Under the pieces are notes generated by a model. It worked only from the letters and a program-made list of their open reading frames with translations, ran no database searches and was not told the origin of the DNA. 64,000 nt of DNA from a bacterium (GTDB taxonomy: Bacteria > Patescibacteriota > Minisyncoccia > Phycocordibacterales > JAGLPS01). Where the stretch lies: contig JAUYHB010000024.1 of assembly GCA_030690305.1 (NCBI GenBank), forward strand, positions 260 through 64,259, read 5' to 3'. Made by a program: the position numbers and the translations under genes. Numbering within the stretch: position 1 is the first letter of the stretch; the number at the start of each line of letters is the position of its first letter. Below, piece by piece: positions 2,295 to 58,017 of this stretch.

Positions 2295-2341
2295 TGAATG
2301 AGGGATGCCTTGTACCACGATCTATGTACTAAAAAAGTAAA

Positions 2342-3184
2342 ATGAAATCACGGGGGAAACATGGCACTGCCACTCAATTTAAAGGGCGCACAAAACAGAC
2401 AACCTCTCCGAAGTTCCGTGAGCGGAACCTCGATAATTTCAAACTGTTGGTTGCTTACCCCGCTTTTCAGGAGGAGGTGTGTAAAATCCAGGCGGAACTC
2501 GAAATCAAAGCCGGTGGTTTTTCCACAACCAAAGAAGCTGAGGAGTGGAATAAACGAGTCATTAAAAAGACAGACATTGTATGGAAACACTATAGTGAGC
2601 TCGTAGAAAAAATAAAAACCGATTCAAAAAACAATGGGATTGGTTACCGAATGATGCAACGCCAGCTCGAAATGTTGTACTCTGGGCTTCCCTTCAGTGG
2701 GTTAGAGAGTTATGCGAGCTATCTTATCGGGCGATTTAACTTACCCCAACACTATCAAAGCGCTTTGGTTCTCCACCTTCTATATGGGACCATATCGGCT
2801 CCGGTTCACAATTATAAAACAGAAGTGCCCTCACCGTTGCGGTCCAGGTCACAACCGAGCGGGTTTTCGGAAGTTAGAGCCACTATCTACACACGCCTAA
2901 CAAAAGACGAGCAGAGAGAGTTAATCGCATGGATCGAAAGGATCACAAATGAAAGGACACTTCCTAAATACGAGCCACTTGTCAACATTGACCGTGATCT
3001 AAAAATAAAAGAAGCATACGAGGCATATAAAGAAAATCGCACCGGTGAGCGTGGCACGATAGCCGACCTCGCCGAGGAGTATTTAGGGGATAGGAAGAAA
3101 GCTAACCAAATAAACGCCATTTTACGAGATCTCAGTAAAATTCAAAAAAGCCGATTTGAAAAAGTGAGAAAAAAGCGGTCATAG
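2342..3184 (+). CDS. hypothetical protein, 280 aa, no recognisable motif; partner gene of the helicase-nuclease
   Basis: Long ORF 47 nt downstream of the helicase on the same strand. No catalytic motifs recognised by eye. Confidence 0.5.
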   Translation: MKSRGKHGTATQFKGRTKQTTSPKFRERNLDNFKLLVAYPAFQEEVCKIQAELEIKAGGFSTTKEAEEWNKRVIKKTDIVWKHYSELVEKIKTDSKNNGIGYRMMQRQLEMLYSGLPFSGLESYASYLIGRFNLPQHYQSALVLHLLYGTISAPVHNYKTEVPSPLRSRSQPSGFSEVRATIYTRLTKDEQRELIAWIERITNERTLPKYEPLVNIDRDLKIKEAYEAYKENRTGERGTIADLAEEYLGDRKKANQINAILRDLSKIQKSRFEKVRKKRS

Positions 3185-3220
3185 TTTCTCACTCATTTTT
3201 GACGGGCACCGGACAATATA

Positions 3221-3296
3221 GTCGCAACCAAAAAGTTGCGACACTTTTGTTCACGGGGGCCGAAATCTGCTCGTACACCCCCGTGGCGAGCAGATT
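3221..3296. promoter_or_regulatory. cluster of perfect inverted repeats upstream of the recombinase gene (candidate recombination or regulatory site)
   Basis: gtcgcaac-N6-gttgcgac (3221-3242); cacggggg...cccccgtg (3252-3286); aatctgctcg...cgagcagatt (3264-3296). The last two are nested. Confidence 0.4.
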
Positions 3297-3484
3297 TTGT
3301 ATGATTTCCCCACAGTCCAAAACAGATAAAGAAAGTACCGCTCTCTCTTTTGACGATTTCAAAAAGTCGTTAGGGCCGAGGGCGGCTAAGTACACCGACG
3401 CACAGATCGAGGTGATGCGGCGTATTTGTGATGGCATTGCAGATGCCTGTTTTAATACTTGGCTTCAAGATAGAAAAGCGCATA

Positions 3485-5212
3485 ATGATGTTATACAACA
3501 TGAATCGTCAAACGCTTAGAGCAACAAAAAACTGCGTTGGCCAATGTCGTGTAAGCTCTCAGAAACAACTGCAGGAGGGTGATAGTTTAGATGTCCAAGA
3601 AGCCAGTATTCGCAGATACGCCGAAGTGAAAGGCTGGAACATTGTTCCTAATAACAATGTTTGGAAGACAGCTATCTCTGGGCGAAAAACGGAGCGCGAC
3701 GACTTTGAGGAAATACTGGCCTACATAAAATCTCACCCGGGCACTGTTGACTACTACGTCTTCCGTTCCATCGATCGCGCAACCCGAGCAGGTAGCGGCG
3801 AGTTACAACGCATGAAAATGGAACTCGCTAAGTGTGGCGTGCAGATGGTAGACACTTACGGCATCATTCAACCATCAGTAAATACACTTTCTGATCTTGA
3901 CTTCGAATACGCATGGAGCAGGTTTTCACCGAGCGAGGTAACAGAGGGTGTCTTTGCTACCACCGCCAATCAAGAAGTCACGACGATCCTCACTCGAATG
4001 ATTGGCCAGTCAATCCGTAATACCCAAAAAGGATACCGCACCCGCCGTCCAACTGACGGGTATCTTAATCAGAAAGTATTTGATGAGTTCGGTAAAAAGA
4101 AGTACATCCAAGTACCAGACCCAAAGCGTGCTAAGTTCCGCATCGATATGTTTGAGTTGCGAGCCCAAGGACTAAGTGATGAGGGGTGTGTGAGGCGGAT
4201 CAATGCAAGCGGCTATCGATCGCCAATCTACAACAAATGGAATGACGCTCACGACAAAATAATCGGGAGACGGGGCGGTAAACCGATGACTATCAAACAA
4301 TTTCAACGCGATATTCAAAACACCATTTACGCAGGGGTACTGTGCGAGAAGTGGACATATTACAAGCCAGTTCGGGCACAATACCCGGGACTGGTGAGTA
4401 TCGAGCTGTGGAACCGTGCCAACCGAGGCAAGATCGCAATTATGGAAGCTGCCGACGGTTCTCTCGAGATCGTTAAGGGTAATCGGTCAGCAACAAGCGG
4501 AACGAGATTAAAAAACAACCCTCTCTTTTCATACAAATTTATTTCCTGTCCGCACTGTGGTAAGCCAATGCTCGGGAGCTCACCACGAGGCAAGATGGGA
4601 AAGCCGCACCCAACTTACCACTGCGCACGAAAGCACAAGTACTTCGGCGTGCCGAAACAAGTATTTGAGGATGCTATAAAAAAGTATATTCGTAGCTTGA
4701 AGTTCAACCCTGACTTGTTAGTAGGACTTGAGGCAACGTTTATGGACAAATTCCGTAAACGTGAGCAAGAGATCGTTCGAGCTTCAGGGCACATCCACCA
4801 GAGCATCGCAGACCTTGAGAGTGAACAGGCCATGAAGCTAGAAGCATACACAGCGAGTAAGAGCGCAGTCATACGGGATATGCTTGAAAAGGAGATCGAA
4901 GGCCTAGAGAAGCAAATCAAGTCTGCCGGTAAGGAGCGCCTCAAAATACAAATAACTCGAGATGACATCAAGTCATTCATGCGGGAGGCAAAAATGATTA
5001 TGGAACACCCAGCACAAATACTCCTAAACCAAAAGGATATAAGGGTTCAAAGGGAATTATTCGGACTGGTATTTGAAACTATGCCGACCTACGTCGAAAT
5101 ACTTAGTGGAACACCTAAATTATCCCTAGCTTTCAGGCTTTCTTCGGACTTTGTGCCCGATAAAAACCAACTGGTGACCCCACGGGGAATCGAACCCCGA
5201 TTACTGCCTTGA
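3485..5212 (+). CDS. large serine recombinase (resolvase/invertase catalytic domain, recombinase domain and zinc ribbon)
   Basis: 'CRVSSQKQ...DSLDVQEASIRRY' with catalytic Ser; 'YVFRSIDRATRAG' (DRLxR-like); C-terminal 'CPHCGKPM...YHCARK' zinc ribbon. The exact start is uncertain (ORF opens at 3428). The last 13 codons are antisense to tRNA-Glu. Confidence 0.85.
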   Translation: MMLYNMNRQTLRATKNCVGQCRVSSQKQLQEGDSLDVQEASIRRYAEVKGWNIVPNNNVWKTAISGRKTERDDFEEILAYIKSHPGTVDYYVFRSIDRATRAGSGELQRMKMELAKCGVQMVDTYGIIQPSVNTLSDLDFEYAWSRFSPSEVTEGVFATTANQEVTTILTRMIGQSIRNTQKGYRTRRPTDGYLNQKVFDEFGKKKYIQVPDPKRAKFRIDMFELRAQGLSDEGCVRRINASGYRSPIYNKWNDAHDKIIGRRGGKPMTIKQFQRDIQNTIYAGVLCEKWTYYKPVRAQYPGLVSIELWNRANRGKIAIMEAADGSLEIVKGNRSATSGTRLKNNPLFSYKFISCPHCGKPMLGSSPRGKMGKPHPTYHCARKHKYFGVPKQVFEDAIKKYIRSLKFNPDLLVGLEATFMDKFRKREQEIVRASGHIHQSIADLESEQAMKLEAYTASKSAVIRDMLEKEIEGLEKQIKSAGKERLKIQITRDDIKSFMREAKMIMEHPAQILLNQKDIRVQRELFGLVFETMPTYVEILSGTPKLSLAFRLSSDFVPDKNQLVTPRGIEPRLLP

Positions 5213-5247
5213 GAAGGCAATGTCCTAACCGTTAGACGATAGGGCCG
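5172..5247 (-). tRNA. tRNA-Glu (anticodon CTC)
   Basis: Minus-strand sequence GGCCCTATCGTCTAACGGTTAGGACATTGCCTTCTCAAGGCAGTAATCGGGGTTCGATTCCCCGTGGGGTCACCA. Cloverleaf with T-stem CGGGG/CCCCG, loop TTCTCAA, Glu-type D-loop and encoded CCA. Confidence 0.85.
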
Positions 5248-28141: not shown

Positions 28142-28174
28142 ACCTTAAATTATAGCAAAGGAACGCCCTCTTCT

Positions 28175-28396
28175 CTACGAGCTAATATGAAATATCTTTG
28201 AGGGAGAATGGTGACCCCGAATGAGACGTACGGAGGAAAGCGGCACTGAAAGGCGTTTGGCAACAATTTCCCTTACACGCCTATTCGCCATATTACGCTC
28301 CGGTTTCTCCTTAACTTCCACAGACAAAACATCGGAAGCGATGGAGGTACATCGTTCTTTTTTGGCTCCCGTTTTAACTTTGACTTTAATATGCAT
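28175..28396 (-). CDS. DUF167/YggU-like small protein
   Basis: 'KVKVKTGAKKE...LSVEVKEKPERNMANRRV' pattern. Confidence 0.5.
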   Translation of the reverse strand: MHIKVKVKTGAKKERCTSIASDVLSVEVKEKPERNMANRRVREIVAKRLSVPLSSVRLIRGHHSPSKIFHISS

Positions 28397-28992
28397 CAGT
28401 ACGCTTCCTCTTCCCGGCGGTATAAGCCCATAAGATGAGTTTCCTCTAATATGTGTCCTTCCATGCCTTTTTCAAGCGTTTCCCGCTCCGCGCCTTCGGG
28501 TAAAGAAAGTGTCGTGTCAAGCGCGTACAATTTGAAAAAATAACGATGGGCGCCGGAAGGAGGGCATGGTCCCCTATATCCCTTGGTACCGGCCGTTGTT
28601 ATTCCGGTGCTGCCTTCCGGGATGCTGTCTTCTTCGATACCGGTCGTGCCCGCAGGAATATTCCACATTATCCAATGCGTAAAAACACCTCTCGGAGCAT
28701 CCGGGTCATCGACAATAAGCGCAAGGGACTGCGTGCCTTCAGGGACTCCTTCAATTTTCAAAGGAGGATTTATATTCTCCCCGTCGCACGTATACAACGA
28801 AGGAATTTCGCTGTTATGCTCAAACGCTTCGCTTTTAAGAGTAAACGTTGACATGGTGTTTAAGTCTGAAACGAGAGAAGATGACCGCTCGTTTTGCCCG
28901 ATATCCGGCAAGACAAGTTTTTCCCACACCAAGAAAACAAACATTCCGACAAGAAACACAATCGCGACAAGCGGCATGCCATATCGTTTCAT
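28396..28992 (-). CDS. PEBP/YbhB-YbcL family protein (Raf kinase inhibitor-like), membrane-anchored
   Basis: 'LALIVDDPDAPRGVFTHW..WNIP...GYRGPCPPSGAHRYFFKLYALD'. Confidence 0.75.
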   Translation of the reverse strand: MKRYGMPLVAIVFLVGMFVFLVWEKLVLPDIGQNERSSSLVSDLNTMSTFTLKSEAFEHNSEIPSLYTCDGENINPPLKIEGVPEGTQSLALIVDDPDAPRGVFTHWIMWNIPAGTTGIEEDSIPEGSTGITTAGTKGYRGPCPPSGAHRYFFKLYALDTTLSLPEGAERETLEKGMEGHILEETHLMGLYRREEEAY

Positions 28993-29087
28993 CTTTAATA
29001 ATTATAGCACTCCGTCAAAAAGCAAAGAGGTCTGTTGCCAAAAACGTGTGGGTACGACAAACAACACCGGAGGAACCTCCTTAGACC

Positions 29088-29543
29088 TTAATCAGAATTT
29101 TTCTTTAAAGAGGACAGTTTTTTGAAAATACCCTCAAGACCCATTACTCTTCCTGAATGAAAAGCGGCAAGAATAAATAGACCGAGCATAAAGACAATAT
29201 GCTGGTCAACGATATAGGCTGTGGCGCTTGGGTGAGGAAAACCGAGCGGGATATAGTATAGAAGCATGAGAATGATTCCAAGCGTTGCGCTCATGCGTAC
29301 GAAAATCCCGAGAATCAAGGACACCCCAAGAAGCGTGAGCCCCCATTCGTTAACAAAATTGATGACGGGAAGAATGCTCGGTTGTAAAAATATCTGGTAC
29401 AAACCCGTAAATGCTTTGGCTCCTTTGAGATACCCTTCCGCAGACCATGCGGGATTAAGCACTTTTGTTATCCCTGCGTAAAAATACATCCACCCGAGAC
29501 CGACTCGGAGAAGAAAAAGAGAGATTTTTTGATACTTTGACAT
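29088..29543 (-). CDS. DoxX family membrane protein
   Basis: 'LRVGLGWMYFYAGITKVLNP' and four TM helices. Confidence 0.65.
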   Translation of the reverse strand: MSKYQKISLFLLRVGLGWMYFYAGITKVLNPAWSAEGYLKGAKAFTGLYQIFLQPSILPVINFVNEWGLTLLGVSLILGIFVRMSATLGIILMLLYYIPLGFPHPSATAYIVDQHIVFMLGLFILAAFHSGRVMGLEGIFKKLSSLKKNSD

Positions 29544-29560
29544 GGTTTTATTTTATCACG

Positions 29561-31705
29561 TTATCGGGACAGTAAAGATTCTTTATTTTTCATAAGAAGA
29601 GCGTTTACGGCAACAATCACCGTAGAAAGGGACATGAATACTGCAGCAAACGCAGGTTGCAAAATGATTCCTTTGGATGCGAGCGCTCCCGCCGCAATTG
29701 GCAATGCGATAAGGTTATATCCCGTCGCCCAAAAAAGATTTTGAATCATCTTGTCGTAGGTAATTTTTGAGAGACGGATAATTTTGACTATGTCCCGAGG
29801 GTCGTTTTTTACAAGAATGATTCCGGCCGACTCGACAGCAACGTTGGTTCCCGCCCCTATGGCAATACCAATATCGGCGGCAGTCAAAGCGGGTGCGTCA
29901 TTGACACCATCGCCCACCATTGCCACTTTCATGCCCCGGGCCTGCAAAAGCCTTACTTTGTCGGCTTTTTCATGGGGGAGCACTTCGGAAAAATATTGGT
30001 CCAGATCAAGCTTCCCCGCCACCCACGAGGCAACATCTTTTGAATCTCCCGTAATCATTGCGACTTTTACACCAAGCTTTTTAAGGCTGTTAACCGCTTC
30101 TTTCGATTCCTCTCTTACGACATCAACAAGAGCAATGCTGCCCAAAAGTTTATGGTCCAATACGACATGAATCACCGTTTTTCCCTCTTTTGCAAGAGAA
30201 GAAATCGTCGCCTCATGCATTTCCGACAAATCGATTTTTTCCTCGGAAAGAAGTTGGTCATTCCCCACGAGAACAAGTTTCCCCGCGACAAGTGCCTGGG
30301 CGCCCTTCCCCGGAAGACGTTTGAAATCCGTGACCGTCTCAAGATTTACATTGCGATGCTGCGCCTCCATGCCTATTGCTTTTGCAAGCGGGTGTTCGGA
30401 TTGACTATTTACGGCCGCGGCCAAACGCAATACGTCTTCTTCCGAAAATCCTTCGGCAGAAACAACAGCGTCAACACCAAATTCGCCGCGGGTTAATGTT
30501 CCCGTTTTGTCGAAAAGAACAATGTCTATGTTGCGTGCGGCTTCCAATGCGATTCGTTGCCGTACCAGGAGTCCGTTCCGTGCCGCCATCGTTGTCGATA
30601 TGGAAGCGACAAGGGGCACGGCAAGACCTAAGGCGTGAGGACACGCAATAACGAGCACGGCCACGAGACGTTCTGTCGCAAACACGACTCCCGCTTTCGC
30701 AACAATCCAAAGTAAGAATGTAAGACCTCCGGCGGCAATCGCAAGAACGGTAAGATAAAACGCGGCTCTGTCGGAAAGAATTTGCAAACGCGACTTGCTT
30801 GCTTGGGCATCCGCGACCAGACGCATCACTCCGGCAAGAAACGTGTGCTCCCCTATTTTTGTGACTTCAATAATAAGACTTCCGTCACCATTTAACGCTC
30901 CCGCAATCACTTCGTCGCCTTCTTTTTTTAAAACAGGTTTTGATTCCCCGGTAATAATCGCCTCGTTGAGTTCCGATTTTCCTTCAAGGATTTTCCCGTC
31001 AGCGGGGATTTTCGCTCCCGGTTTGACACGAACGTTATCTCCGACGGCAAGTTCGGAAAGCGGTATGGTTTTGGTTGCCCCCCCTCGGATTACTTCGGCA
31101 GTATCAGGAAGAAGTTTTGCCAGTTCTTTAAGGGCCCCCTGAGTGCTTTGGACCGATTTCATTTCAATCCAATGTCCGAGCAGCATAACGGCAATCAATG
31201 TCCCCAGTTCCCAGAATAACGTATGCTCAGAGCCCCGCAGCACCTCAAAGATACTGAAAGAGTAGGCTGCGGTTATTGCCAAAGCGATAAGCGTCATCAT
31301 TCCCGGCAACCGGGCGGAAAGTTCCCGATATGCCCCTGCAATAAACACCCATCCGCCGTAAAAGAAAATTACCGAACCGAGAGCCGCAACTGAAAAGTCC
31401 TGCAACGGAAAAGACGGCAGTGCGAATCCGAATGCTTTTTCAAAAAGTTCGGAGTAGAGAAGAATCGGAATAGTCAGAACAAGAACAGCCCAGAATTTCT
31501 TGAGAAAAGATTCCGTTTTGTGTCCTTTGTGTTTGTCATGATTTTTTTCGGACTTGTCCGTCGTAGCTTTAGTGGAGACGGGAACAAGGCGCATGCCGCA
31601 TTCGGAACACATGCCTTCCTTTGCTTGTTTGATCTCAGGATGCATCGGACAGGTATATATTGTCTGTGATTCGCTATTTTGATTGTTATGGTTGTGGTGA
31701 TTCAT
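29561..31705 (-). CDS. copB: heavy-metal (copper) translocating P1B-type ATPase, CopB-like with CPH motif
   Basis: 'DKTGTLT', 'GDGVNDAPAL', TM 'CPH'. His-rich N-terminus 'NHHNHNN' plus 'CPMHPEI...CSECGM' metal-binding zinc ribbon. Confidence 0.85.
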   Translation of the reverse strand: MNHHNHNNQNSESQTIYTCPMHPEIKQAKEGMCSECGMRLVPVSTKATTDKSEKNHDKHKGHKTESFLKKFWAVLVLTIPILLYSELFEKAFGFALPSFPLQDFSVAALGSVIFFYGGWVFIAGAYRELSARLPGMMTLIALAITAAYSFSIFEVLRGSEHTLFWELGTLIAVMLLGHWIEMKSVQSTQGALKELAKLLPDTAEVIRGGATKTIPLSELAVGDNVRVKPGAKIPADGKILEGKSELNEAIITGESKPVLKKEGDEVIAGALNGDGSLIIEVTKIGEHTFLAGVMRLVADAQASKSRLQILSDRAAFYLTVLAIAAGGLTFLLWIVAKAGVVFATERLVAVLVIACPHALGLAVPLVASISTTMAARNGLLVRQRIALEAARNIDIVLFDKTGTLTRGEFGVDAVVSAEGFSEEDVLRLAAAVNSQSEHPLAKAIGMEAQHRNVNLETVTDFKRLPGKGAQALVAGKLVLVGNDQLLSEEKIDLSEMHEATISSLAKEGKTVIHVVLDHKLLGSIALVDVVREESKEAVNSLKKLGVKVAMITGDSKDVASWVAGKLDLDQYFSEVLPHEKADKVRLLQARGMKVAMVGDGVNDAPALTAADIGIAIGAGTNVAVESAGIILVKNDPRDIVKIIRLSKITYDKMIQNLFWATGYNLIALPIAAGALASKGIILQPAFAAVFMSLSTVIVAVNALLMKNKESLLSR

Positions 31706-31780
31706 AATCTTTATTCTACGCCGCATTCAAATAAACGTTTAACACCGTCGCTGACATTTATATTTTTAATTCAGTATGTT

Positions 31781-32794
31781 TTATATCCCGCACCCGCTTT
31801 GCTGGCGTGGCTGTGCCGCTGGTGCTCCTGTGTCTACCCCACATCCATTTCCACTCCTCTGTCCTTGGGGTTGAACAACCTGCGAAGCAATCCTTTGGTA
31901 TCCCTGCGCGCTTGAGAAATTAATACCAAGTATTTCTTGCGGGTTCACGTCTTTCCAATCAACGCTTTTATTTTTCATATAGGTTGCTATGGTCATATAC
32001 GTGTCCGGGAACCAGTAAGAATTAACTGCCAAAGCGGCTGCCCACATATCTTCCTCGCTAACGCCCTGTGAAGCCATGAGTTCAAGAAGCCCAAGCATCG
32101 CCATACCGTGATTGCAATCGGGAAAATGCGTCGAATTACCACAACAAGGGCGGTAGATTCCTTTCGATACTTTATCCACTAAAGCCTGCTGTTCGGAGGT
32201 CAAATCGAAAAATTTATGCCGACTATAGTGATCCATTGCATTTCCTTCGGCAATTGTCCAACCGCCCGTCGAGGCAAAATTACCCGCGCCTCCATATTTC
32301 GCATTTGCCATTTCGCCTTTTTCCAAGATTTCATTTTTACTCGCAAGACCTAAAGCCCAGAACAGATTGAGCAGATATCCGGCGTTGTTTTTTGTAATTT
32401 TTAGCTTGCCATCGTTTTGTCCGAGAAGCAGATTTTTGTACTCATTGGTAAATGCACTACGGTCTTCGTATATGGCTTTAAATTTTTCGGCATCAATTGC
32501 CCCTACACTTGCAAGTTTCACACCGAGGTCGCCCCATGTAACGGGAAGATCAACCCCTTGAGACGACAATACTTTTTCTTCCAGCTCGGAAATCTTGGTT
32601 TGCTCGTGGTTTGTTCCAAGACCCGATGTTTGCTTTTCAACGGTTCCAGGCCCGCTTGTATACATCCATGCACCGGAAAGAACAAGCGCGGAAATAAGAA
32701 TGCTTGCGGAGAGCACGTAGTCTTTTTTGACTGGCTTAACTTCAGGAGAGTCCTCCGTGATTTGATTTTGTGTTTCGTTTTTGTTGTTTTCCAT
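31781..32794 (-). CDS. exported/membrane-anchored hypothetical protein with 'CCGNSTHFPDCNHGM' motif
   Basis: TM anchor, Cys/His cluster and a C-terminal 'GNGCG...SGCGI'. Lies between the copper ATPase and the Trx-like gene. Confidence 0.45.
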   Translation of the reverse strand: MENNKNETQNQITEDSPEVKPVKKDYVLSASILISALVLSGAWMYTSGPGTVEKQTSGLGTNHEQTKISELEEKVLSSQGVDLPVTWGDLGVKLASVGAIDAEKFKAIYEDRSAFTNEYKNLLLGQNDGKLKITKNNAGYLLNLFWALGLASKNEILEKGEMANAKYGGAGNFASTGGWTIAEGNAMDHYSRHKFFDLTSEQQALVDKVSKGIYRPCCGNSTHFPDCNHGMAMLGLLELMASQGVSEEDMWAAALAVNSYWFPDTYMTIATYMKNKSVDWKDVNPQEILGINFSSAQGYQRIASQVVQPQGQRSGNGCGVDTGAPAAQPRQQSGCGI

Positions 32795-32833
32795 AGATAT
32801 GTGATTTATTTTCCATTGTTAAGGATAGTTATG

Positions 32834-33205
32834 TTAACGTGTTTCCGTAACCGGACATCCACTTAATTCGGAAAGTTGCGCGGGGCTCAATTCTCCTTCA
32901 ACTCTGGTTCCGTCGGGAAATACCCATGTCGGGTAAGCTTTTATACCGGCGGCAATACATACCTGCGGATTATCGGGACATTCCACATATGGAACGAAAG
33001 AAAATACTTCTCCGAATGCCCTCTTCTGGCTTTGACAGTGCGAACACCACGCGGCGCCGTACATTGTCACGTTTTTTTCCGCAAGACACTGCGTAAGAAA
33101 AGTGAAATCTTCCTTCGGGCGGCTTGTACACAAAAAAACGACAACCAATCCTATGGCCAAAATAAGTGCACCGATAACAAGAAAGAAAGTATTTTCTTTA
33201 TTCAT
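32834..33205 (-). CDS. membrane-anchored thioredoxin-like protein (CxxC 'WCSHCQ'), resembling the Trx domain fused to bacterial VKOR
   Basis: 'MYGAAWCSHCQSQKRAFG' Trx fold with an N-terminal TM helix. Confidence 0.7.
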   Translation of the reverse strand: MNKENTFFLVIGALILAIGLVVVFLCTSRPKEDFTFLTQCLAEKNVTMYGAAWCSHCQSQKRAFGEVFSFVPYVECPDNPQVCIAAGIKAYPTWVFPDGTRVEGELSPAQLSELSGCPVTETR

Positions 33206-33695
33206 TGCAGCAGTCCACGAGTTTGTTGACAATGTCTTGCGCTGACCATGGTTTTTCTTCCGAAGCAACCACTTTTATATCTTCAAGATTGAGAAGTTTG
33301 AGCCGTAAAGCCCAAAACATCGAGTACATTGAGTAGGCGCGCTCGAACATTTCTTTGGCGTCTTCTTTTTTACCGTCTCCGTGAAATTTCGTTCCGACTT
33401 CCATAAGGCGCATCGTCGTCGCCAAGAGATGCTTGCTAATACACCACGTTTCCCCTTCGTGCTTTTGCACAAGGCGGGACATAAGAGCTTTCCGATTTTC
33501 CCTTACTTCGGCCAAAAAGTCGAAGTATTCATCTTTTTTTGTCTTTGAGCCCGTGAAAAAGAAATGTTCCTCAAGGCTCAAAAGGTTCATCACAGCAATA
33601 CTTAAGTCTTCGTCCGAAGAAAGGTCGATTTTCCCGGAGCGGCGTAATTCTTCGACTTTTAGAAGCACTTCATTCATTGTTTGTTTTCCATCCAT
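33198..33695 (-). CDS. hypothetical soluble protein ending in ...DCCNE
   Basis: ORF between ccdA and the Trx-like gene. No recognised domain. Confidence 0.45.
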   Translation of the reverse strand: MDGKQTMNEVLLKVEELRRSGKIDLSSDEDLSIAVMNLLSLEEHFFFTGSKTKKDEYFDFLAEVRENRKALMSRLVQKHEGETWCISKHLLATTMRLMEVGTKFHGDGKKEDAKEMFERAYSMYSMFWALRLKLLNLEDIKVVASEEKPWSAQDIVNKLVDCCNE

Positions 33696-33700
33696 GATAA

Positions 33701-34483
33701 TTACAACATAAAGATAATAATTCCTAAGATAACCATCGCGACCCCGCCCCATATTCGCATATGAGTATTCTCTCCCTTTTTCCACTCGCGTACTTTTTCT
33801 ATAAGCGCTTTATCGCTTGAAAGAATAAGAATGATGACGAGCGGAAGGACAAAGATGAGGTTGTAGAAGAAGAGATATCCAAGACCTGTAATATATGTTG
33901 TTGAGTCATGGAGAAGTCCGAGAACCATAAGGTATGGACCTCCTGTGCACGGAAATTCGCACAAAGCGACAAATACTCCCAGAATGAAAGCGGTGGGAAG
34001 AGTTGCTTTCTCCATTAGGAAAGCCATTGTTTTGTGGGATACAGTCGGTATGCGCAACTTGATGGGAAACGACGGGAAAAATTCATTGATAAGATTCAGC
34101 GCTCCCCATCCTATAAGAAGGAAAGCACCGAGTTTCGCCATAAAGTGCGGAGTATTGAAGAAATGAAGCGCCTGAAGAATACCAAGACCGATAAGCATGT
34201 AGGAGATGTAAATTCCGAGAATATAGAATGCACCGATAGTAAGGATGCTACCTCGCACTTTTCCAAGATTTATCAGGAAGGCTATGGTAAGAAGAAGAAT
34301 GGAAAATGCACATGGATTGATACTGTCAATGAGCGCGGCTATGCCCACGAGCGGCAAGAGCCATGTTCCCTCATTGCTTATGTTCCACAACATGACAGAA
34401 CCGAAAGAAGTCATTTTGAGAAACAGAATTGTCCCCAAAAGCAGAGCGGCAGAAATTACAAGAATGATAAATTTTTTATTCAT
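33701..34483 (-). CDS. ccdA: cytochrome c biogenesis/thiol-disulfide transporter CcdA (DsbD core)
   Basis: Six TM helices with 'INPCAF' and 'CEFPCTGGPY' conserved cysteines. Confidence 0.8.
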   Translation of the reverse strand: MNKKFIILVISAALLLGTILFLKMTSFGSVMLWNISNEGTWLLPLVGIAALIDSINPCAFSILLLTIAFLINLGKVRGSILTIGAFYILGIYISYMLIGLGILQALHFFNTPHFMAKLGAFLLIGWGALNLINEFFPSFPIKLRIPTVSHKTMAFLMEKATLPTAFILGVFVALCEFPCTGGPYLMVLGLLHDSTTYITGLGYLFFYNLIFVLPLVIILILSSDKALIEKVREWKKGENTHMRIWGGVAMVILGIIIFML

Positions 34484-34489
34484 GGGAGT

Positions 34490-34996
34490 TTAAGGAGTTA
34501 CGTTCGCGGTAAAACGAAGCTCAACAGGTGCTCCGCTGTCATTTTCCAGGATAATTGATCGTCCAATTTTCCCCACGCCGGCCGGACCGTGAGCCGCGGG
34601 ATCAAAAGTAACGATAACGCGAGATTGTTCTTGAGGATTGATTGCGGCATTGATAGCCGGAATAAAACCGTGGCCCGGCATACCAAAGGGACCGAATGTA
34701 CCCTCTGCCGTTTGCAGTGCCGCTTGTGTGCACATGCAAGAGGTATATAGGGTACGCACCAAGGTTGCTCGCCCGCCTGTATTGGTAATAACGTATTCGT
34801 GTGTCACCGGGCCCTTCGCCATAGAAATGGTTCCAAAATCGAAGGTTTTCTCTTGAGCAACGAGGAAGCTTTCGGATAATTTGTTTTCTTGATTTTCTTG
34901 GGATTTTTTATTCTGAGAAATATTATTCGTTACAATAAGCGCCCCCAGAGCGACAATACTAATGAACAATGCAATGAGTATATCTTTCGTTTTCAT
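34490..34996 (-). CDS. DUF1573 domain protein (membrane-anchored, 'SCMCT' motif)
   Basis: 'FDFGTISMAKGPVTHEYVITNTGG..L.....YTSCMCT'. Confidence 0.6.
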   Translation of the reverse strand: MKTKDILIALFISIVALGALIVTNNISQNKKSQENQENKLSESFLVAQEKTFDFGTISMAKGPVTHEYVITNTGGRATLVRTLYTSCMCTQAALQTAEGTFGPFGMPGHGFIPAINAAINPQEQSRVIVTFDPAAHGPAGVGKIGRSIILENDSGAPVELRFTANVTP

Positions 34997-35088
34997 ACTT
35001 TACATATAACGGGATTAGAAACGGGTAAAATGAAAAACCCGCTTTTAAAACCAAAGGCAACTTGACTAAAGAGCCTGAGGAGAGCGGG

Positions 35089-35496
35089 CTAGAAAGAAGA
35101 CGAAGGGTCGCGCTTTTCACGCAAAGAGAGCCAGTGTGAAAATTTCTGCGTCGCACTAGTCTCATGGAGAGAATACGTTACAGGCCGAATGACAAGAAAA
35201 GTTTTTTGAGAAATTACAACAATCGCGTATAGAAACGCCGACACGGAAGTCAGCAGCAACGAGACGAGCAAAACAGACATGGACACGCTATCAAAAGTGG
35301 CGGTTGAGAATCCACGCAATGCGTTGGTATAAAATGCCGCCCCATCAAGGGCCGTACTTGTGTCCGGACACACCGTCCGCTGGAAAAGAGATGCAATGCA
35401 ACCTGCTCCATAGTTGTGTCCCATGCCAAGAAAACCGAAAACGGCAATACCCACAATGGCGACAAAAAGTATTGAGGATGTAAGGCGCGCTAACAT
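35089..35496 (-). CDS. hypothetical membrane protein
   Basis: Three predicted TM helices. No motif. Confidence 0.4.
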   Translation of the reverse strand: MLARLTSSILFVAIVGIAVFGFLGMGHNYGAGCIASLFQRTVCPDTSTALDGAAFYTNALRGFSTATFDSVSMSVLLVSLLLTSVSAFLYAIVVISQKTFLVIRPVTYSLHETSATQKFSHWLSLREKRDPSSSF

Positions 35497-35536
35497 ATTT
35501 GGATTATATCACAATTTTTAGGTTATGTCTTCCCTG

Positions 35537-35929
35537 CTACTCCGTGGTCCTGCCATCGAAGTGTTCTTCATTTGACAGAGCCTCGGCCTTCGTCTTGCGG
35601 ACAGTACCGTCTTGATGTTCCGGGGGTGAATAAAGAGTATACAGTTTCATATCCGCACTGCCCGCATTTATGACATTGTGTTTTACACCCGCAGGCACAA
35701 CAACCGCACTCCCGTCGGCAATTACATGTTCCACACCATTAAGCACAGCTTTCCCCTCTCCCGCTTCAACTCTGATAAATTGGTCAAGGGTGTGAACTTC
35801 TTCTCCGATATCTTCGCCTGGTTTAAGATTCATCAAAACCAACTGACTGTTTTTTGCCGTATACAGCACACGTCGGAAATCGGAATTTTCAAGAGATTCC
35901 TTTTCAATGTTTGAAACATAACCTTTCAT
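35537..35929 (-). CDS. cupin 2 domain protein
   Basis: 'GEDIGEEVH...VEAGEG...VVVPAGVKHNVIN' cupin motifs. Confidence 0.7.
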   Translation of the reverse strand: MKGYVSNIEKESLENSDFRRVLYTAKNSQLVLMNLKPGEDIGEEVHTLDQFIRVEAGEGKAVLNGVEHVIADGSAVVVPAGVKHNVINAGSADMKLYTLYSPPEHQDGTVRKTKAEALSNEEHFDGRTTE

Positions 35930-35981
35930 ACCGTTGATTATACACCCAAAAGAAAACCGTCAGCCTTGGGCTGACGGTTTT

Positions 35982-36641
35982 TTATAAAGGAACAATTTTT
36001 TCCATGTTTTTTCCGAAAGAAACCGCGCGGACCTTCACTTGCGCTTCTTTTTCTAGAAGCGTAATACCCTCAATAAATTCTTTGGGTAGGTCTTTGGAGG
36101 AAGAGACGGCGTCCGTTTCGCATTTCCATCCGGGAAACCTTTTGTAAAATGCCTGGCATTTTTCCAGAACTCCGTTTGACGGAATTGCGGTATAAAACTC
36201 GCTTTGCATTGAGAGTGTTTCCTTACCCCGGCGTTTTCCCGTGTAATACGGCTCCGTCCCTTCGTAACGATATCCGACACATAATCGTATTTCAGGACAA
36301 CCGTTTAACACTTCGGCCCGAGCAAGGATAATTTCCCTTCGCTCGTTTCTCAAAGCGTGACGTAACAAGGCAAGGTCGAGCCAGCCTATTCTCAAAGGCC
36401 TTCCAAGAGCATCATACTCATCCGCCTTTATACGAATAGCCGCGCCCAGTTCAAATTCATCCTTACTTTCAAGGCTTGCCGTGGGAAACTCTTTGAGATC
36501 CCGCTCTCTGTCGACAAGACCTGCACACCATCGTGCAGATTTCCGGCCTCCCATTTCCGTGGGAATACATTGCCGCAAATTGGAATTAGCCATATAAAAC
36601 GCTTTGACGACAAAACATCTATCCGTAAAAAAGCGGTTCAT
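35982..36641 (-). CDS. stand-alone adenylosuccinate synthetase C-terminal-domain homolog (no GTP-binding N-domain)
   Basis: 'GRPLRIGWLDLALLRHA', 'IRLCVGYRY', 'FPGWKCETDA', 'LPKEFIEGITLLEKEAQVKV' are colinear with the PurA C-terminal half. Strong SD 'aaaggagg' and a 'tatataat' -10. Confidence 0.6.
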   Translation of the reverse strand: MNRFFTDRCFVVKAFYMANSNLRQCIPTEMGGRKSARWCAGLVDRERDLKEFPTASLESKDEFELGAAIRIKADEYDALGRPLRIGWLDLALLRHALRNERREIILARAEVLNGCPEIRLCVGYRYEGTEPYYTGKRRGKETLSMQSEFYTAIPSNGVLEKCQAFYKRFPGWKCETDAVSSSKDLPKEFIEGITLLEKEAQVKVRAVSFGKNMEKIVPL

Positions 36642-36780
36642 ATAAACCTCCTTTCGTGGAAGTTACGATTTTAAAGAAGAATCATTTTCTTGCCACACAT
36701 TATATAAAAAGACCAAAAGACGCAAGAAAGGGATAGCTTTTCAAAAATATTTCCCTCAAGCCGTTTGAGCGAAAATTTAC

Positions 36781-47422: not shown

Positions 47423-48139
47423 TTAAACAGAAACTGATGCCGGTACAGGACCGACAAAATTACGAATTCTTCCCTTTCCGTTTTTTGTATGCCGGGGGAG
47501 AGCGAGTAATTGACGGGCTCTTTTGAACACCGACTCAATTGTTGACAAATTGGTTTGGGTGATACGGAGGTTTCGAATAATGTTTTTTTCCTGTAACTGG
47601 AGGTACTTGATCATGGGTACGGTTTTGCCCTTGAATTCTTTCCACCGTTTCTCGAAAGTGGACGTCGAGTCGTCTTTCCTGTCACCTCTGGTTTTGCCGG
47701 CACGAAGCAGTCTCTCGAGGAAAATTTCCTTTTCCCCGTCAAGAAAGAGATGTGTGACGCCAAAATGTGACCAATAACGTATGAAACTTGCGCGTTGGCC
47801 GTTTGTCCGGGGATAACCGCAAACAATTATCGGTATGCTCTTTGGCGCATAATCACCATTTCTTTCACGAATAATGCGCGTAACTTCTTTTTGGAAGCAC
47901 GTGTCAATAATTTCGTCGGGAAGCAAATGACCCGAATTCATTGCCGTTTTCAGCGCCTCCTGAAGGTGGGGTTCTTTCAAAACGTTCGAAAAACTCGGGT
48001 CGTTTTGAATCGTTTTGCGAAGATAATCGCCCATGTCGATGAAACCAAAACCATATTCGCGGGCGAGCCCTTCCGCAAGGGTGTTTTTGCCCGAACACGG
48101 TCCACCGGTAACCAGGATAAAACGAACGCTTTTCTGCAT
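47423..48139 (-). CDS. adenylate kinase-like NMP kinase (divergent)
   Basis: 'ILVTGGPCSGKNT', 'IDMGDYLRK', 'IVCGYPRT', LID-like 'RGDRKDD..FEKR'. Confidence 0.55.
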   Translation of the reverse strand: MQKSVRFILVTGGPCSGKNTLAEGLAREYGFGFIDMGDYLRKTIQNDPSFSNVLKEPHLQEALKTAMNSGHLLPDEIIDTCFQKEVTRIIRERNGDYAPKSIPIIVCGYPRTNGQRASFIRYWSHFGVTHLFLDGEKEIFLERLLRAGKTRGDRKDDSTSTFEKRWKEFKGKTVPMIKYLQLQEKNIIRNLRITQTNLSTIESVFKRARQLLALPRHTKNGKGRIRNFVGPVPASVSV

Positions 48140-50106: not shown

Positions 50107-50880
50107 CTACAAGAGCGCATTGTCGATAGCGTATTCTCCGACACGCGTCCGAGTAAGAGAAAGAATAGTGCCCCCACAAGCCAGATTTTGGCCAAGTAAG
50201 TGAACAAGTCCGCGTATATACGTGCCCGAAGTGACTGAAAAAAAGACCGATGTTGTCCTGAATGTCTCCCCTTCTTTTCCCGCAAGTGTTTTGCGCCACT
50301 CCCGCACAATATCGTCCTGGCGAAAATTACCTGAAATTTTGGAAATTTTTTCTTCAATGGCCGAAAGAAGAACCTTACCGTGCATCGCGTTGTGAGAAAC
50401 CACGTATGCGTTTTCCACGTGAATATCTTTGAGAGGAATTTCAATTTCGTTTATTTTTCCTTCACGGGCCCATTGAAACAGTGGTTTACCGAGAACCGGC
50501 TTGGAAGAGTAGGCTGGAAAGTGCTGGTGAGTTTCGTCGTGAAGTTTTTTCACTTCTTCTTCGACAAGAACATCAAATGTTTCGGGAAAGGAAAACGGCG
50601 TGCTGCGCATTATTCCGAGAATGTCGTATGTGTCGGTTGAAAAACCCCACAGGATTTCACATACATAGTCTTTGGTAAAAGAAAGATATTGCGCACGTTT
50701 TTTATTTTCTTCATCAACAAGCACGAGAAGCACCCCCTCGGCCATTGGGTCAAGACGTCCCGCATAACTCAATGTCGCATCCGCATACAGCGGATTTTCT
50801 TTTTTAAAACGCTCAAGACGTTCTTTGGGCGTTTCCCCAATACGTTTGTATAGATTGATGATTCCTTGTTTCTCCTTCAT
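50107..50880 (-). CDS. truB: tRNA pseudouridine(55) synthase TruB-like
   Basis: 'GRLDPMAEGVLLV', 'KDYVCEILWGFSTDTYD'. Confidence 0.7.
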   Translation of the reverse strand: MKEKQGIINLYKRIGETPKERLERFKKENPLYADATLSYAGRLDPMAEGVLLVLVDEENKKRAQYLSFTKDYVCEILWGFSTDTYDILGIMRSTPFSFPETFDVLVEEEVKKLHDETHQHFPAYSSKPVLGKPLFQWAREGKINEIEIPLKDIHVENAYVVSHNAMHGKVLLSAIEEKISKISGNFRQDDIVREWRKTLAGKEGETFRTTSVFFSVTSGTYIRGLVHLLGQNLACGGTILSLTRTRVGEYAIDNALL

Positions 50881-50904
50881 CTTTTGGCTACAATAGTACC
50901 TATC

Positions 50905-51891
50905 ATGGAAGAAAAGGCAAAGAAGCTTTCAACTGAGAGCTACAAAGGTGTGCGGGATTTTTATCCCGAAGACATGGCTGTTCAAAATTATATTTTCTCG
51001 ACATGGAGAAAAATAGTTGAGGAAGCCGGGTATCAAGAGTATGAAGCATCCATACTTGAATATGCCGACCTCTATCGAAGTAAAGGAAACGACGAAATTG
51101 TTAATGACCAGATGTATCTGTTCAAGGATAAAGGCGACCGTGAAGTTGCCCTTCGTCCAGAAATGACACCTTCGCTTGCCCGCATGATTGCGGCAAAGCG
51201 CAGAGGTCTCAAGCTCCCCCTCCGTTGGTATTCAATCCCAAACGTTTTTCGTTACGAACGTCCTCAACGCGGACGCAAGCGCGAACACTGGCAGCTCAAC
51301 TGTGACCTTATAGGTGTTCCTGGAATTGAGGGAGATGTAGAGATTATTTCTCTTGCTCATAAAACTATGCGAGAGTTCGGAGCAAAAGATGAAGATTTCA
51401 TTATACGAGTGAATGACCGGAAACTCTTTGACGAAATTTTTGAAGAGATTGGCGGTTGTTCATCGAGTACGAGAAAAGAAGTTATACGCCTTGTGGATGC
51501 TCAAGAAAAAATTGATAACTTTAAAGACGAACTTACCCGTAACTTGGGAGAAGAGAAAAAAGAAAGATTTCTAGAACTTTTGAATGGGAAGAAAACAACA
51601 AAAAATCTTGATAACTTAAAAAACGAGCTCAATTCAAGAGGGATTAATAATGTGGTTATTGATACAAACATTGCTCGGGGTTTTGATTACTACACGGGTA
51701 TTGTCTTTGAAGCTTTTGACACAAACACGGAAAATCGTCGTTCTCTTTTTGGTGGTGGACGATATGATAATTTGCTTGAGATGTTCGGTGTAGAACCTGT
51801 AGCAATCGTTGGTTTCGGTATAGGAGATGTTACTGTTCGCGATTTTCTGGAAAGCCACAACCTCCCGCTTACTATTTCTAAAAAGTTATAA
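50905..51891 (+). CDS. hisS: histidyl-tRNA synthetase catalytic domain without anticodon-binding domain (HisRS/HisZ-like)
   Basis: 'GVRDFYPED', 'LRPEMTPSLARM', motif 3 'GGGRYDNL'. The ORF stops right after the catalytic core. Confidence 0.7.
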   Translation: MEEKAKKLSTESYKGVRDFYPEDMAVQNYIFSTWRKIVEEAGYQEYEASILEYADLYRSKGNDEIVNDQMYLFKDKGDREVALRPEMTPSLARMIAAKRRGLKLPLRWYSIPNVFRYERPQRGRKREHWQLNCDLIGVPGIEGDVEIISLAHKTMREFGAKDEDFIIRVNDRKLFDEIFEEIGGCSSSTRKEVIRLVDAQEKIDNFKDELTRNLGEEKKERFLELLNGKKTTKNLDNLKNELNSRGINNVVIDTNIARGFDYYTGIVFEAFDTNTENRRSLFGGGRYDNLLEMFGVEPVAIVGFGIGDVTVRDFLESHNLPLTISKKL

Positions 51892-57505: not shown

Positions 57506-57588
57506 GTCAAGGCTGATTATACCATTGCATAATGGTATACTCCGAAGTGAATCCCAGAGTTATTTGAAAACGCGGAAAGGAGGCATAT

Positions 57589-58017
57589 ATGCGCGTGAAA
57601 ATTGATGTTGAAGAAATGTCAAAAGCAACATGCATACCTGCCGAGACAATCAGGCGGGCACTGACCCTGAGAAGACCGACATTGGAAATAGGGGAAAAGC
57701 GGTATCCTGAATCTTTATTTGATTATATGGTTATCGCTTTTGAAAAGTCACCTTCCCCAAATTCTCTTCGGAAGATAATTTGTCAGTACTTTCTTGCAGT
57801 TAAATTTCAGCGGAAATACCCGACCCAAGCGGAGTTTAAAATGATGGAAAGATTTTTCGAAACAGTAGTTAAAGACGAAAATCCTTCCGAAGCGTTGCGT
57901 ATATGGAAACGCATGCCAATGAGATTCCGAAACGGGGTACATGAGATTTTTATCGCGTATTTCTATTCCCAACGCAATAAATTTGTACGCGAGCATGCAT
58001 ATCGTTTTCGCAAATGA
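57589..58017 (+). CDS. hypothetical protein
   Basis: ORF only. Confidence 0.4.
   Translation: MRVKIDVEEMSKATCIPAETIRRALTLRRPTLEIGEKRYPESLFDYMVIAFEKSPSPNSLRKIICQYFLAVKFQRKYPTQAEFKMMERFFETVVKDENPSEALRIWKRMPMRFRNGVHEIFIAYFYSQRNKFVREHAYRFRK

Follow-up and report, generated by a model that had tools for sequence, protein, structure and literature searches.

Adenylosuccinate synthetase (PurA or AdSS; EC 6.3.4.4; PF00709) makes adenylosuccinate from inosine monophosphate (IMP), aspartate and guanosine triphosphate (GTP), and its structure is known from E. coli (1ADE) and H. pylori (6ZXQ/9F17). In the H. pylori enzyme, GDP is bound by K322, D324 and S400-402, IMP contacts V264 (the equivalent of E. 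coli V273) and R294, and the loop 289-294 binds aspartate, while the N-terminus lies near the dimerisation interface, with a cross-subunit contact at Arg135/143 (PMC11276676). PurZ, the phage N6-succino-2-amino-2'-deoxyadenylate synthase, and the short archaeal PurA of P. horikoshii belong to the same superfamily and have altered specificity, but they are full-length catalytic enzymes. For a stand-alone PurA C-terminal domain we found no precedent in the literature. Here we describe a gene for such a protein, truncated purA, which encodes 219 amino acids (aa) in a 64,000-nucleotide (nt) stretch (the window) of contig JAUYHB010000024.1 from a Patescibacteriota assembly (GCA_030690305.1). The gene descends from purA, shows one and the same truncation in four independent assemblies, has lost catalytic and ligand-contact residues, and is under strong purifying selection. 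We consider it probable that its product is a selection-maintained, non-catalytic PurA C-terminal domain (E. coli residues ~267-431), that is, a lineage-specific pseudoenzyme. We take the retained segment to be the 'domain 3' of PurA in structural classifications.

Profile and pairwise comparisons agree on what has been retained. Pfam PF00709 (Adenylsucc_synt) matches the protein with an E value of 1.9e-24 (86.6 bits, cutoff 27), joining protein residues 53-216 to profile positions 273-415/416 only. The NCBIfam PurA equivalog models (TIGR00184/PRK01117 and related) align to the same C-terminal part and give 49-73 bits against cutoffs of 395-700, so that a full-length score is not reached. PurA chains in the PDB also match (best E value 4.5e-12), and in the alignment with E. 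coli PurA homology begins at K267 (FVVKAFYM = ILKAY/IVKAFYM). When 1.84 billion cluster representatives were searched exhaustively with HMMER, the 219-aa query returned, after close orthologues, many PurA-like proteins of ~500 aa, whose residues ~295-505 align with query residues 10-217. The nearest relatives are the ~500-aa PurAs of Patescibacteria/Paceibacterota (P0011, P0013, P0014 and P0018; one relative carries the name 'Candidatus Paceibacterota'), which share 35-40% identity with the query over residues 10-217. They have in common with the 219-aa protein two insertions relative to E. coli PurA: one of ~40 aa with the pattern PTE-GG..S..WC...EF..G.A.R, which is characteristic of this long subfamily and marks the ancestry of the fragment, and a second with the pattern Y.G..Y..G...L. 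These relatives differ from the 219-aa protein in being full length, with intact motifs, and in being encoded in guaB-purA clusters.

A preliminary description of this DNA, made from the sequence, had aligned the C-terminal 140 residues with PurA. The alignment is significant in both the Pfam and the NCBIfam searches, and the PurA-derived part is longer, at ~210 aa. The 'unique 80-aa N-terminus' of that description does not stand, because residues 10-80 are homologous to the ~500-aa Patescibacteria-type PurA and only about nine residues are new. The motif strings it quoted (GRPRRCGW, VKLCVAY and MPGW) are PurA consensus and are absent from the protein, which reads GRPLRIGW (80-87), IRLCVGY (118-124), FPGW (169-172) and LPKEFIEGITLLE (185-197). 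Its statements that the GTP-binding N-terminal half is missing and that the window contains no full-length purA hold. The open reading frame begins at the equivalent of E. coli ~K267 and lacks the P-loop GDEGKGK and the catalytic Asp13 and His41; compared with PurA as a whole, residues 1 to ~265 are missing, and with them also Asn38, Thr129, Arg143, Gln224 and Thr239. When five full-length PurA relatives were used as tblastn queries against the window and three related contigs (L001, L002 and L004), only their C-terminal ~200 residues matched, and no segment of residues 1-290 was found in any frame, including as an out-of-frame N-terminal half next to the gene. The deposited name of the window protein, 'MAG: adenylosuccinate synthetase [Patescibacteria group bacterium]' (MAG, metagenome-assembled genome), was assigned automatically and is misleading.

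Within the retained domain, positions that contact ligands have been replaced and those of the fold core kept. In a set of 96 full-length PurAs, 33 positions of the retained part are at least 85% conserved. All four truncated proteins keep 17 of the 33, namely the fold-core residues K267, Y269, T280, E281, E296, R306, G308, D311, C344, Y347, G377, W378, P392, S414 and G416 (E. coli numbering), together with two positions that have no identical residue in E. coli PurA. None of the four retains R272, V273, G298, T301, K331 or D333, and T271, G274, G276, F278, G294, R303, R305, T330, P370 and Y372 have been replaced in part of the family, R303 becoming K in P0007 and R305 becoming L or I in the window clade (one sub-clade each). 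The lost positions match the IMP, aspartate-loop and guanine contacts of H. pylori AdSS (PMC11276676). The IMP-contact segment TRVG has become ANSN or THDG. In the aspartate-binding loop, the window protein carries G298 to D, T301 to L and R305 to L and keeps R303, R306, G308 and W309; across the family the loop G-x-T-T-G-R-x-R-R is represented by DA-LGRPLR (window clade) or ESEIGKPRR (P0007). The guanine-specificity motif (T)KLD, whose K and D are 90% and 99% conserved in the 96 full-length proteins, has become ARAE, SRAE or, in P0007, TSLG. Because the replacements differ by sub-clade (ARAE vs TSLG, LGRPLR vs IGKPRR), lost constraint fits them better than a new specificity. Synthesis of adenylosuccinate by the 219-aa protein is predicted from these residues to be absent.

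The window protein belongs to a small family. P0001 (219 aa, 95% identity, on L002) and P0002 (219 aa, 83%, on L001) are close orthologues, and P0007 (216 aa, 46-49% identity, on L004) has the same start and N-terminal motif, M(E)N[RQ]FF[TS]D being common to all four truncated proteins. Gene order on L001 and L002 follows that of the window through GerM, truncated purA, cupin, a 135-aa protein, DUF1573 and a membrane protein. On L004, truncated purA is followed by YggU-HPF-x-fmt-def, and the same block lies at 26.2-28.4 kb in the window; since YggU-HPF-fmt-def is near the gene in both, the L004 locus is probably orthologous. A ~7.6-kb segment, 28396-35929(-), parts truncated purA in the window from these genes, which lie downstream of it and are its direct neighbours on L004. 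The segment codes for PEBP, DoxX, a heavy-metal P-type ATPase (HMBD domain), a 337-aa unknown protein, a thioredoxin-like protein, a CcdA/SfLAP-like membrane protein, DUF1573 and the cupin, and has the look of a metal/redox island that has come or gone between lineages.

A neighbour-joining tree of the domain unites the four truncated proteins in one clade, which has a long stem and is nested in the ~500-aa group beside P0014 and P0018. The distance between the window protein and P0007 is 0.84, and the 5th percentile among 40 full-length members is 0.89. The single clade, the long stem and this distance indicate that truncation happened once and was followed by rapid change and long preservation. 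The full-length relatives lie directly after guaB, with purB, purC, purE, purH or purD nearby, and this neighbourhood marks them as genuine PurAs, whereas truncated purA does not lie beside purine genes. On L074, L076 and L077 the long Patescibacteria-type PurA consistently follows guaB after gaps of 7-25 nt, a conserved pairing that unites the two branch-point enzymes drawing on IMP.

Further truncated members were sought widely. A contig scan of GTDB species representatives with the family alignment gave none and returned only ordinary full-length PurAs (Bacteroidales, Lachnospiraceae and others), caught through the K.F.GWKC motif, and two metagenome contig scans, with protein patterns and with a degenerate DNA pattern for CVGYRY.xTExY, gave none either. 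Several candidates were set aside. P0008, P0156 and P0004, from assemblies of a single project in which purA, IMPDH and aconitase are all broken up, have adjacent N-terminal pieces and intact catalytic motifs, and we regard them as assembly errors or ordinary pseudogenes; P0009, P0017, P0024 and P0030 are contig-end fragments. The assemblies L003, L005 and L070 (ENA ERZ25039482, ERZ25039480 and ERZ25039472, all from one project) contain many split genes, with purA, IMPDH and aconitase each in two pieces, and their short 'PurA C-terminal' proteins are not to be counted as stand-alone domains.

Selection on truncated purA resembles that on its neighbouring genes. By the Nei-Gojobori method, the ratio of nonsynonymous to synonymous substitution rates (dN/dS) is 0.052 for the window against L001, 0.082 against L002 and 0.042 for L001 against L002, and eight neighbouring genes give 0.03-0.14. 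The proportion of synonymous differences (pS) is ~0.70 for the deeper pairs, and synonymous sites are near saturation. The proportion of nonsynonymous differences (pN) is far under pS in every sub-segment, including codons 1-25 (0.065 and 0.36 against L001). Over the reading frame the window and L001 differ at 154 of 660 nt (23%) with no indel and no stop, and none of the four orthologues contains a frameshift or a stop; in a simulation of random substitutions, the frame stayed open in 0.19% of 20,000 replicates. The gene is more alike between the window (35982-36641) and L002 (706-1365) than its surroundings are, at 91.3% DNA identity (pS 0.29) against 76-82% (pS 0.46-0.82) for flanking genes, which suggests recent recombination of truncated purA between lineages or constraint on synonymous sites.

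The positions of the gene, of the regions discussed above and of its putative expression signals are collected in Table 1.

Table 1. Features of the truncated purA locus (positions in the window; residues of the 219-aa protein).
Feature	Position	Strand	Remarks
Stand-alone PurA C-terminal domain coding sequence, 219 aa	35982..36641	-	ATG start; corresponds to residues ~267-431 of E. coli PurA, with two insertions typical of the lineage
N-terminal 9 residues, MNRFFTDRC	36615..36641	-	Sole part without clear PurA counterpart
Residues 18-29, ANSNLRQCIPTE, degraded TRVGxGPFPTE motif (IMP-ribose contact region)	36555..36590	-	R272 and V273 lost, PTE kept
Residues 40-71, ~40-aa helical insertion	36429..36524	-	Absent in E. 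coli PurA, typical of ~500-aa Patescibacteria-type PurA
Residues 76-87, YDALGRPLRIGW, degraded aspartate-binding loop (consensus YGATTGRPRRTGW)	36381..36416	-	From alignment and conservation table
Residues 106-110, LARAE, degraded guanine-specificity motif (L)TKLD	36312..36326	-	K331 to R, D333 to E
Residues 126-143, second insertion relative to E. coli PurA	36213..36266	-	Common with ~500-aa family; window clade 4 aa longer
Residues 208-212, SFGKN, remnant of S(T/V)GPDR	36006..36020	-	S414 and G416 kept; P and D lost
Shine-Dalgarno site AAAGGAGG	36647-36654	-	5-nt spacer (TTTAT) before ATG
-10-like element TATATAAT	36699-36706	-	Hexamer TATAAT at 36699-36704, ~58 nt upstream
Intrinsic-terminator-like hairpin and T-rich tail	35943..35981	-	13-bp stem, 7 GC pairs, begins 1 nt past stop codon

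The signals around the gene suggest that it is expressed. The Shine-Dalgarno (SD) site and the -10 string named in the preliminary description are both present, and it was correct in calling a strong SD unusual here: an SD of at least 6 bases precedes 3 of the 55 called genes in the window, and 47 of the 55 have no SD. The string AAAGGAGGTT and the ATG are invariant in the window, L001, L002 and L004, and the rest of the upstream DNA cannot be aligned, although TATAGT (L001) and TGTAGT (L002) align at the place of the -10-like box. A consensus promoter scan did not score TATATAAT as a full -35/-10 pair and listed a weaker GTGGCA-17-TAAAAT at 36696-36668. The position of the -10-like box implies a leader of ~50 nt, unlike the leaderless neighbours: in 11 genes (for example at 35930-35945(-), 35497-35510(-), 28142-28160(-) and 57506-57525(-)) the start codon comes 4-10 nt after a TATAAT-like box, a sign of leaderless mRNAs, and many first genes appear leaderless. 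Because a terminator-like hairpin follows the stop codon, truncated purA appears monocistronic; the cupin gene downstream of it is preceded by a TGTGTATAAT of its own, 7 nt from the ATG. Rfam, at gathering and at E-value thresholds, gave no riboswitch or leader at truncated purA, the sub-threshold matches being caused by the terminator hairpin. The other two genes with an SD of at least 6 bases encode an adenylate-kinase-like protein, 47423-48139(-) (Pfam ADK, E value 4e-15; SD AGAGGAGG), and a 142-aa protein without Pfam or PADLOC match, 57589-58017(+), whose SD and spacer AAAGGAGGcatatATG are a near-copy of AAAGGAGGtttatATG at truncated purA. The gene had been described beforehand as expressed and repurposed rather than decaying; its maintenance is borne out by the dN/dS values of 0.05-0.08 and by the start and SD common to four assemblies, and that it may have been repurposed is suggested by selection together with the loss of active-site residues.

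The predicted fold is that of PurA. AlphaFold2, run with a 41-sequence alignment, gave a mean predicted local distance difference test score (pLDDT) of 90.9 and a predicted template modelling score of 0.87. The region of the first insertion contains helices at 45-51 and 62-73, and the block 131-140 in the second insertion, with a pLDDT of 65, is the lowest-confidence part of the model. In Foldseek searches of the PDB the significant structural matches were PurA chains only (best E value 2.7e-14; query-normalised template modelling (TM) score 0.55-0.68), and in BFVD viral PurA-like proteins only. The 219-aa domain may fold independently.

The origin of the gene follows from these comparisons. 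It stems from a ~500-aa, insertion-bearing PurA of Patescibacteria/Paceibacterota that lost its first ~290 codons in one lineage, and with them the P-loop, the catalytic Asp13 and His41, Arg143 of the dimer contact and most of the residues that touch IMP. The gene recruited a new start codon preceded by a strong SD, and a burst of change replaced the remaining ligand-contact residues while keeping the fold core, with strong purifying selection since. Judging by its signals, the gene would be transcribed as a single-gene unit with its own promoter, a ~50-nt leader and its own terminator. As the protein presumably cannot make adenylosuccinate, a binding module is its most likely role: the face once packed on domains 1 and 2, or the remodelled aspartate loop and guanine pocket, may bind a protein partner or a small ligand, in a regulatory or scaffolding role comparable to that of other enzyme-derived pseudoenzymes. 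A pseudoenzyme is expected to combine lost catalytic or ligand residues with purifying selection and a conserved fold, and the 219-aa protein shows all of these; its expression and its non-catalytic function are predicted. HisZ, a paralogue of histidyl-tRNA synthetase (HisRS) without the anticodon-binding domain that regulates HisG, offers a parallel as a truncated housekeeping-enzyme paralogue with lost catalytic residues that selection has kept, but it comes from another parent family and has a known partner. More tentatively, PurA domain 3 could have been exapted into a new non-enzymatic family, for example a sensor or adaptor for a nucleotide or a partner protein, in a cell dependent on its host for purines and with SD-dependent translation of the gene in a genome where leaderless or SD-less initiation otherwise prevails; we regard this as doubtful, and it would make the protein the first stand-alone PurA-derived pseudoenzyme.

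Three other explanations bear on this reading. One is decay, a deletion having left the 3' part of purA with its frame open by chance, and it would account for a truncated enzyme with degraded active-site residues, the more so as fragmented purA does exist in other assemblies (L003, L005 and L070). Those copies, unlike the truncated family, keep their catalytic motifs and adjacent N-terminal pieces, whereas here dN/dS is 0.05-0.08 at a pS of ~0.7, no indel has accumulated over 23% nucleotide divergence (the chance of an open frame being ~0.002), and start, N-terminal motif and SD persist at 46-49% protein identity; saturated synonymous divergence also argues against recent transfer of one sequence, and we regard a pseudogene remnant as highly improbable. 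The 219-aa protein might instead be the C-terminal subunit of a split enzyme, the N-terminal half being encoded elsewhere in the genome and the specificity altered as in PurZ. Purifying selection and the intact predicted fold are compatible with this, S414, G416, R306 and the GW..D motif are kept along with R303 (window clade) or R305 (P0007), and the search for the N-terminal half spanned the 64-kb window and the three related contigs; that search found none, however, and all four proteins have lost six near-universal ligand-contact or loop residues (R272, V273, G298, T301, K331 and D333), with replacements whose differences between sub-clades speak for lost constraint rather than new specificity. 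Nor does the model resemble PurZ (7odx: Foldseek E value 1.6, TM score 0.24; phage PurZ in BFVD, E value 1.3), and P. horikoshii PurA matches at an E value of ~4e-3; we rejected PurZ identity, the protein being too short and the structural match poor, and a split enzyme appears improbable. A regulator that binds and modulates a full-length PurA encoded elsewhere, or another purine-salvage enzyme, as HisZ does HisG, would be a special case of the pseudoenzyme we favour, so the same evidence of selection and lost catalysis applies to it, and enzyme-derived regulatory paralogues such as HisZ are established. Against it, the canonical dimer interface sits in the missing part (PMC11276676), the window contains no purA, purB or guaB and no purine gene other than that for the adenylate-kinase-like protein, and no neighbour is conserved; this particular role is unlikely.

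The stand-alone pseudoenzyme that we prefer, for which a binding or regulatory role is suggested, has several points to be set against it. Expression as a monocistronic mRNA is predicted from promoter, SD and terminator signals. The confidence of the AlphaFold2 model may derive from its alignment, in which fragments of full-length PurAs predominate, and stability of the domain on its own does not follow from high model confidence. No conserved neighbour, Rfam element or PADLOC match points to a partner or ligand, and there is no consistent charge signature, the isoelectric point (pI) being 8.9-9.1 in the window clade and 6.1 in P0007; the idea of nucleic-acid binding was dropped on the same ground, as the window clade is basic (pI ~9) and P0007 acidic. 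The search for a full-length purA or an N-terminal half covered the window and three related contigs, and with four or five sequences known, statistics on family-specific conservation are thin.

The surroundings of the gene are largely housekeeping. Upstream of truncated purA lie 232 nt of non-coding DNA and then the GerM-like gene. The window also carries envelope and division genes (mraZ-rsmH-PBP-mur, mreB, murA and undecaprenyl-diphosphatase), translation and RNA genes (a LysRS/AsnRS-type synthetase, a HisRS-like protein, def, fmt, HPF and TruB), replication and transcription genes (priA, sigma-70, primase and greA), and enolase, and PADLOC found no defence-system match for truncated purA or its neighbours. 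The HisRS-like protein at 50866-51891(+), of 341 aa and followed by an RNase H-like exonuclease gene, matches catalytic-core families (PF13393 and PF00587), with no anticodon-binding-domain family among its Pfam matches, and may represent a second domain-truncated enzyme in this genome or a protein akin to HisZ. At the start of the window, a block at 48-5212(+) that encodes a ResIII/DEAD helicase-like protein, an unknown protein of 280 aa and a large serine recombinase (594 aa as called, with a Resolvase N-terminal domain) ends at a tRNA gene, 5175-5246(-), and may represent an integrated mobile element.

As a stand-alone PurA domain-3 pseudoenzyme, the protein adds a variant to a known family rather than a new type of system, and its scope is narrow, at four or five known sequences. 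If our reading is true, the deposited name would lead metabolic reconstructions of these MAGs to credit them wrongly with the branch from IMP to adenosine monophosphate, and truncated purA, as one of the 3 strong-SD genes among 55, would be useful for tracing how these bacteria partition translation initiation. It would also offer a clean, dated case of a reduced, host-dependent genome that has pared a core metabolic enzyme to one domain and retained this as a pseudoenzyme.

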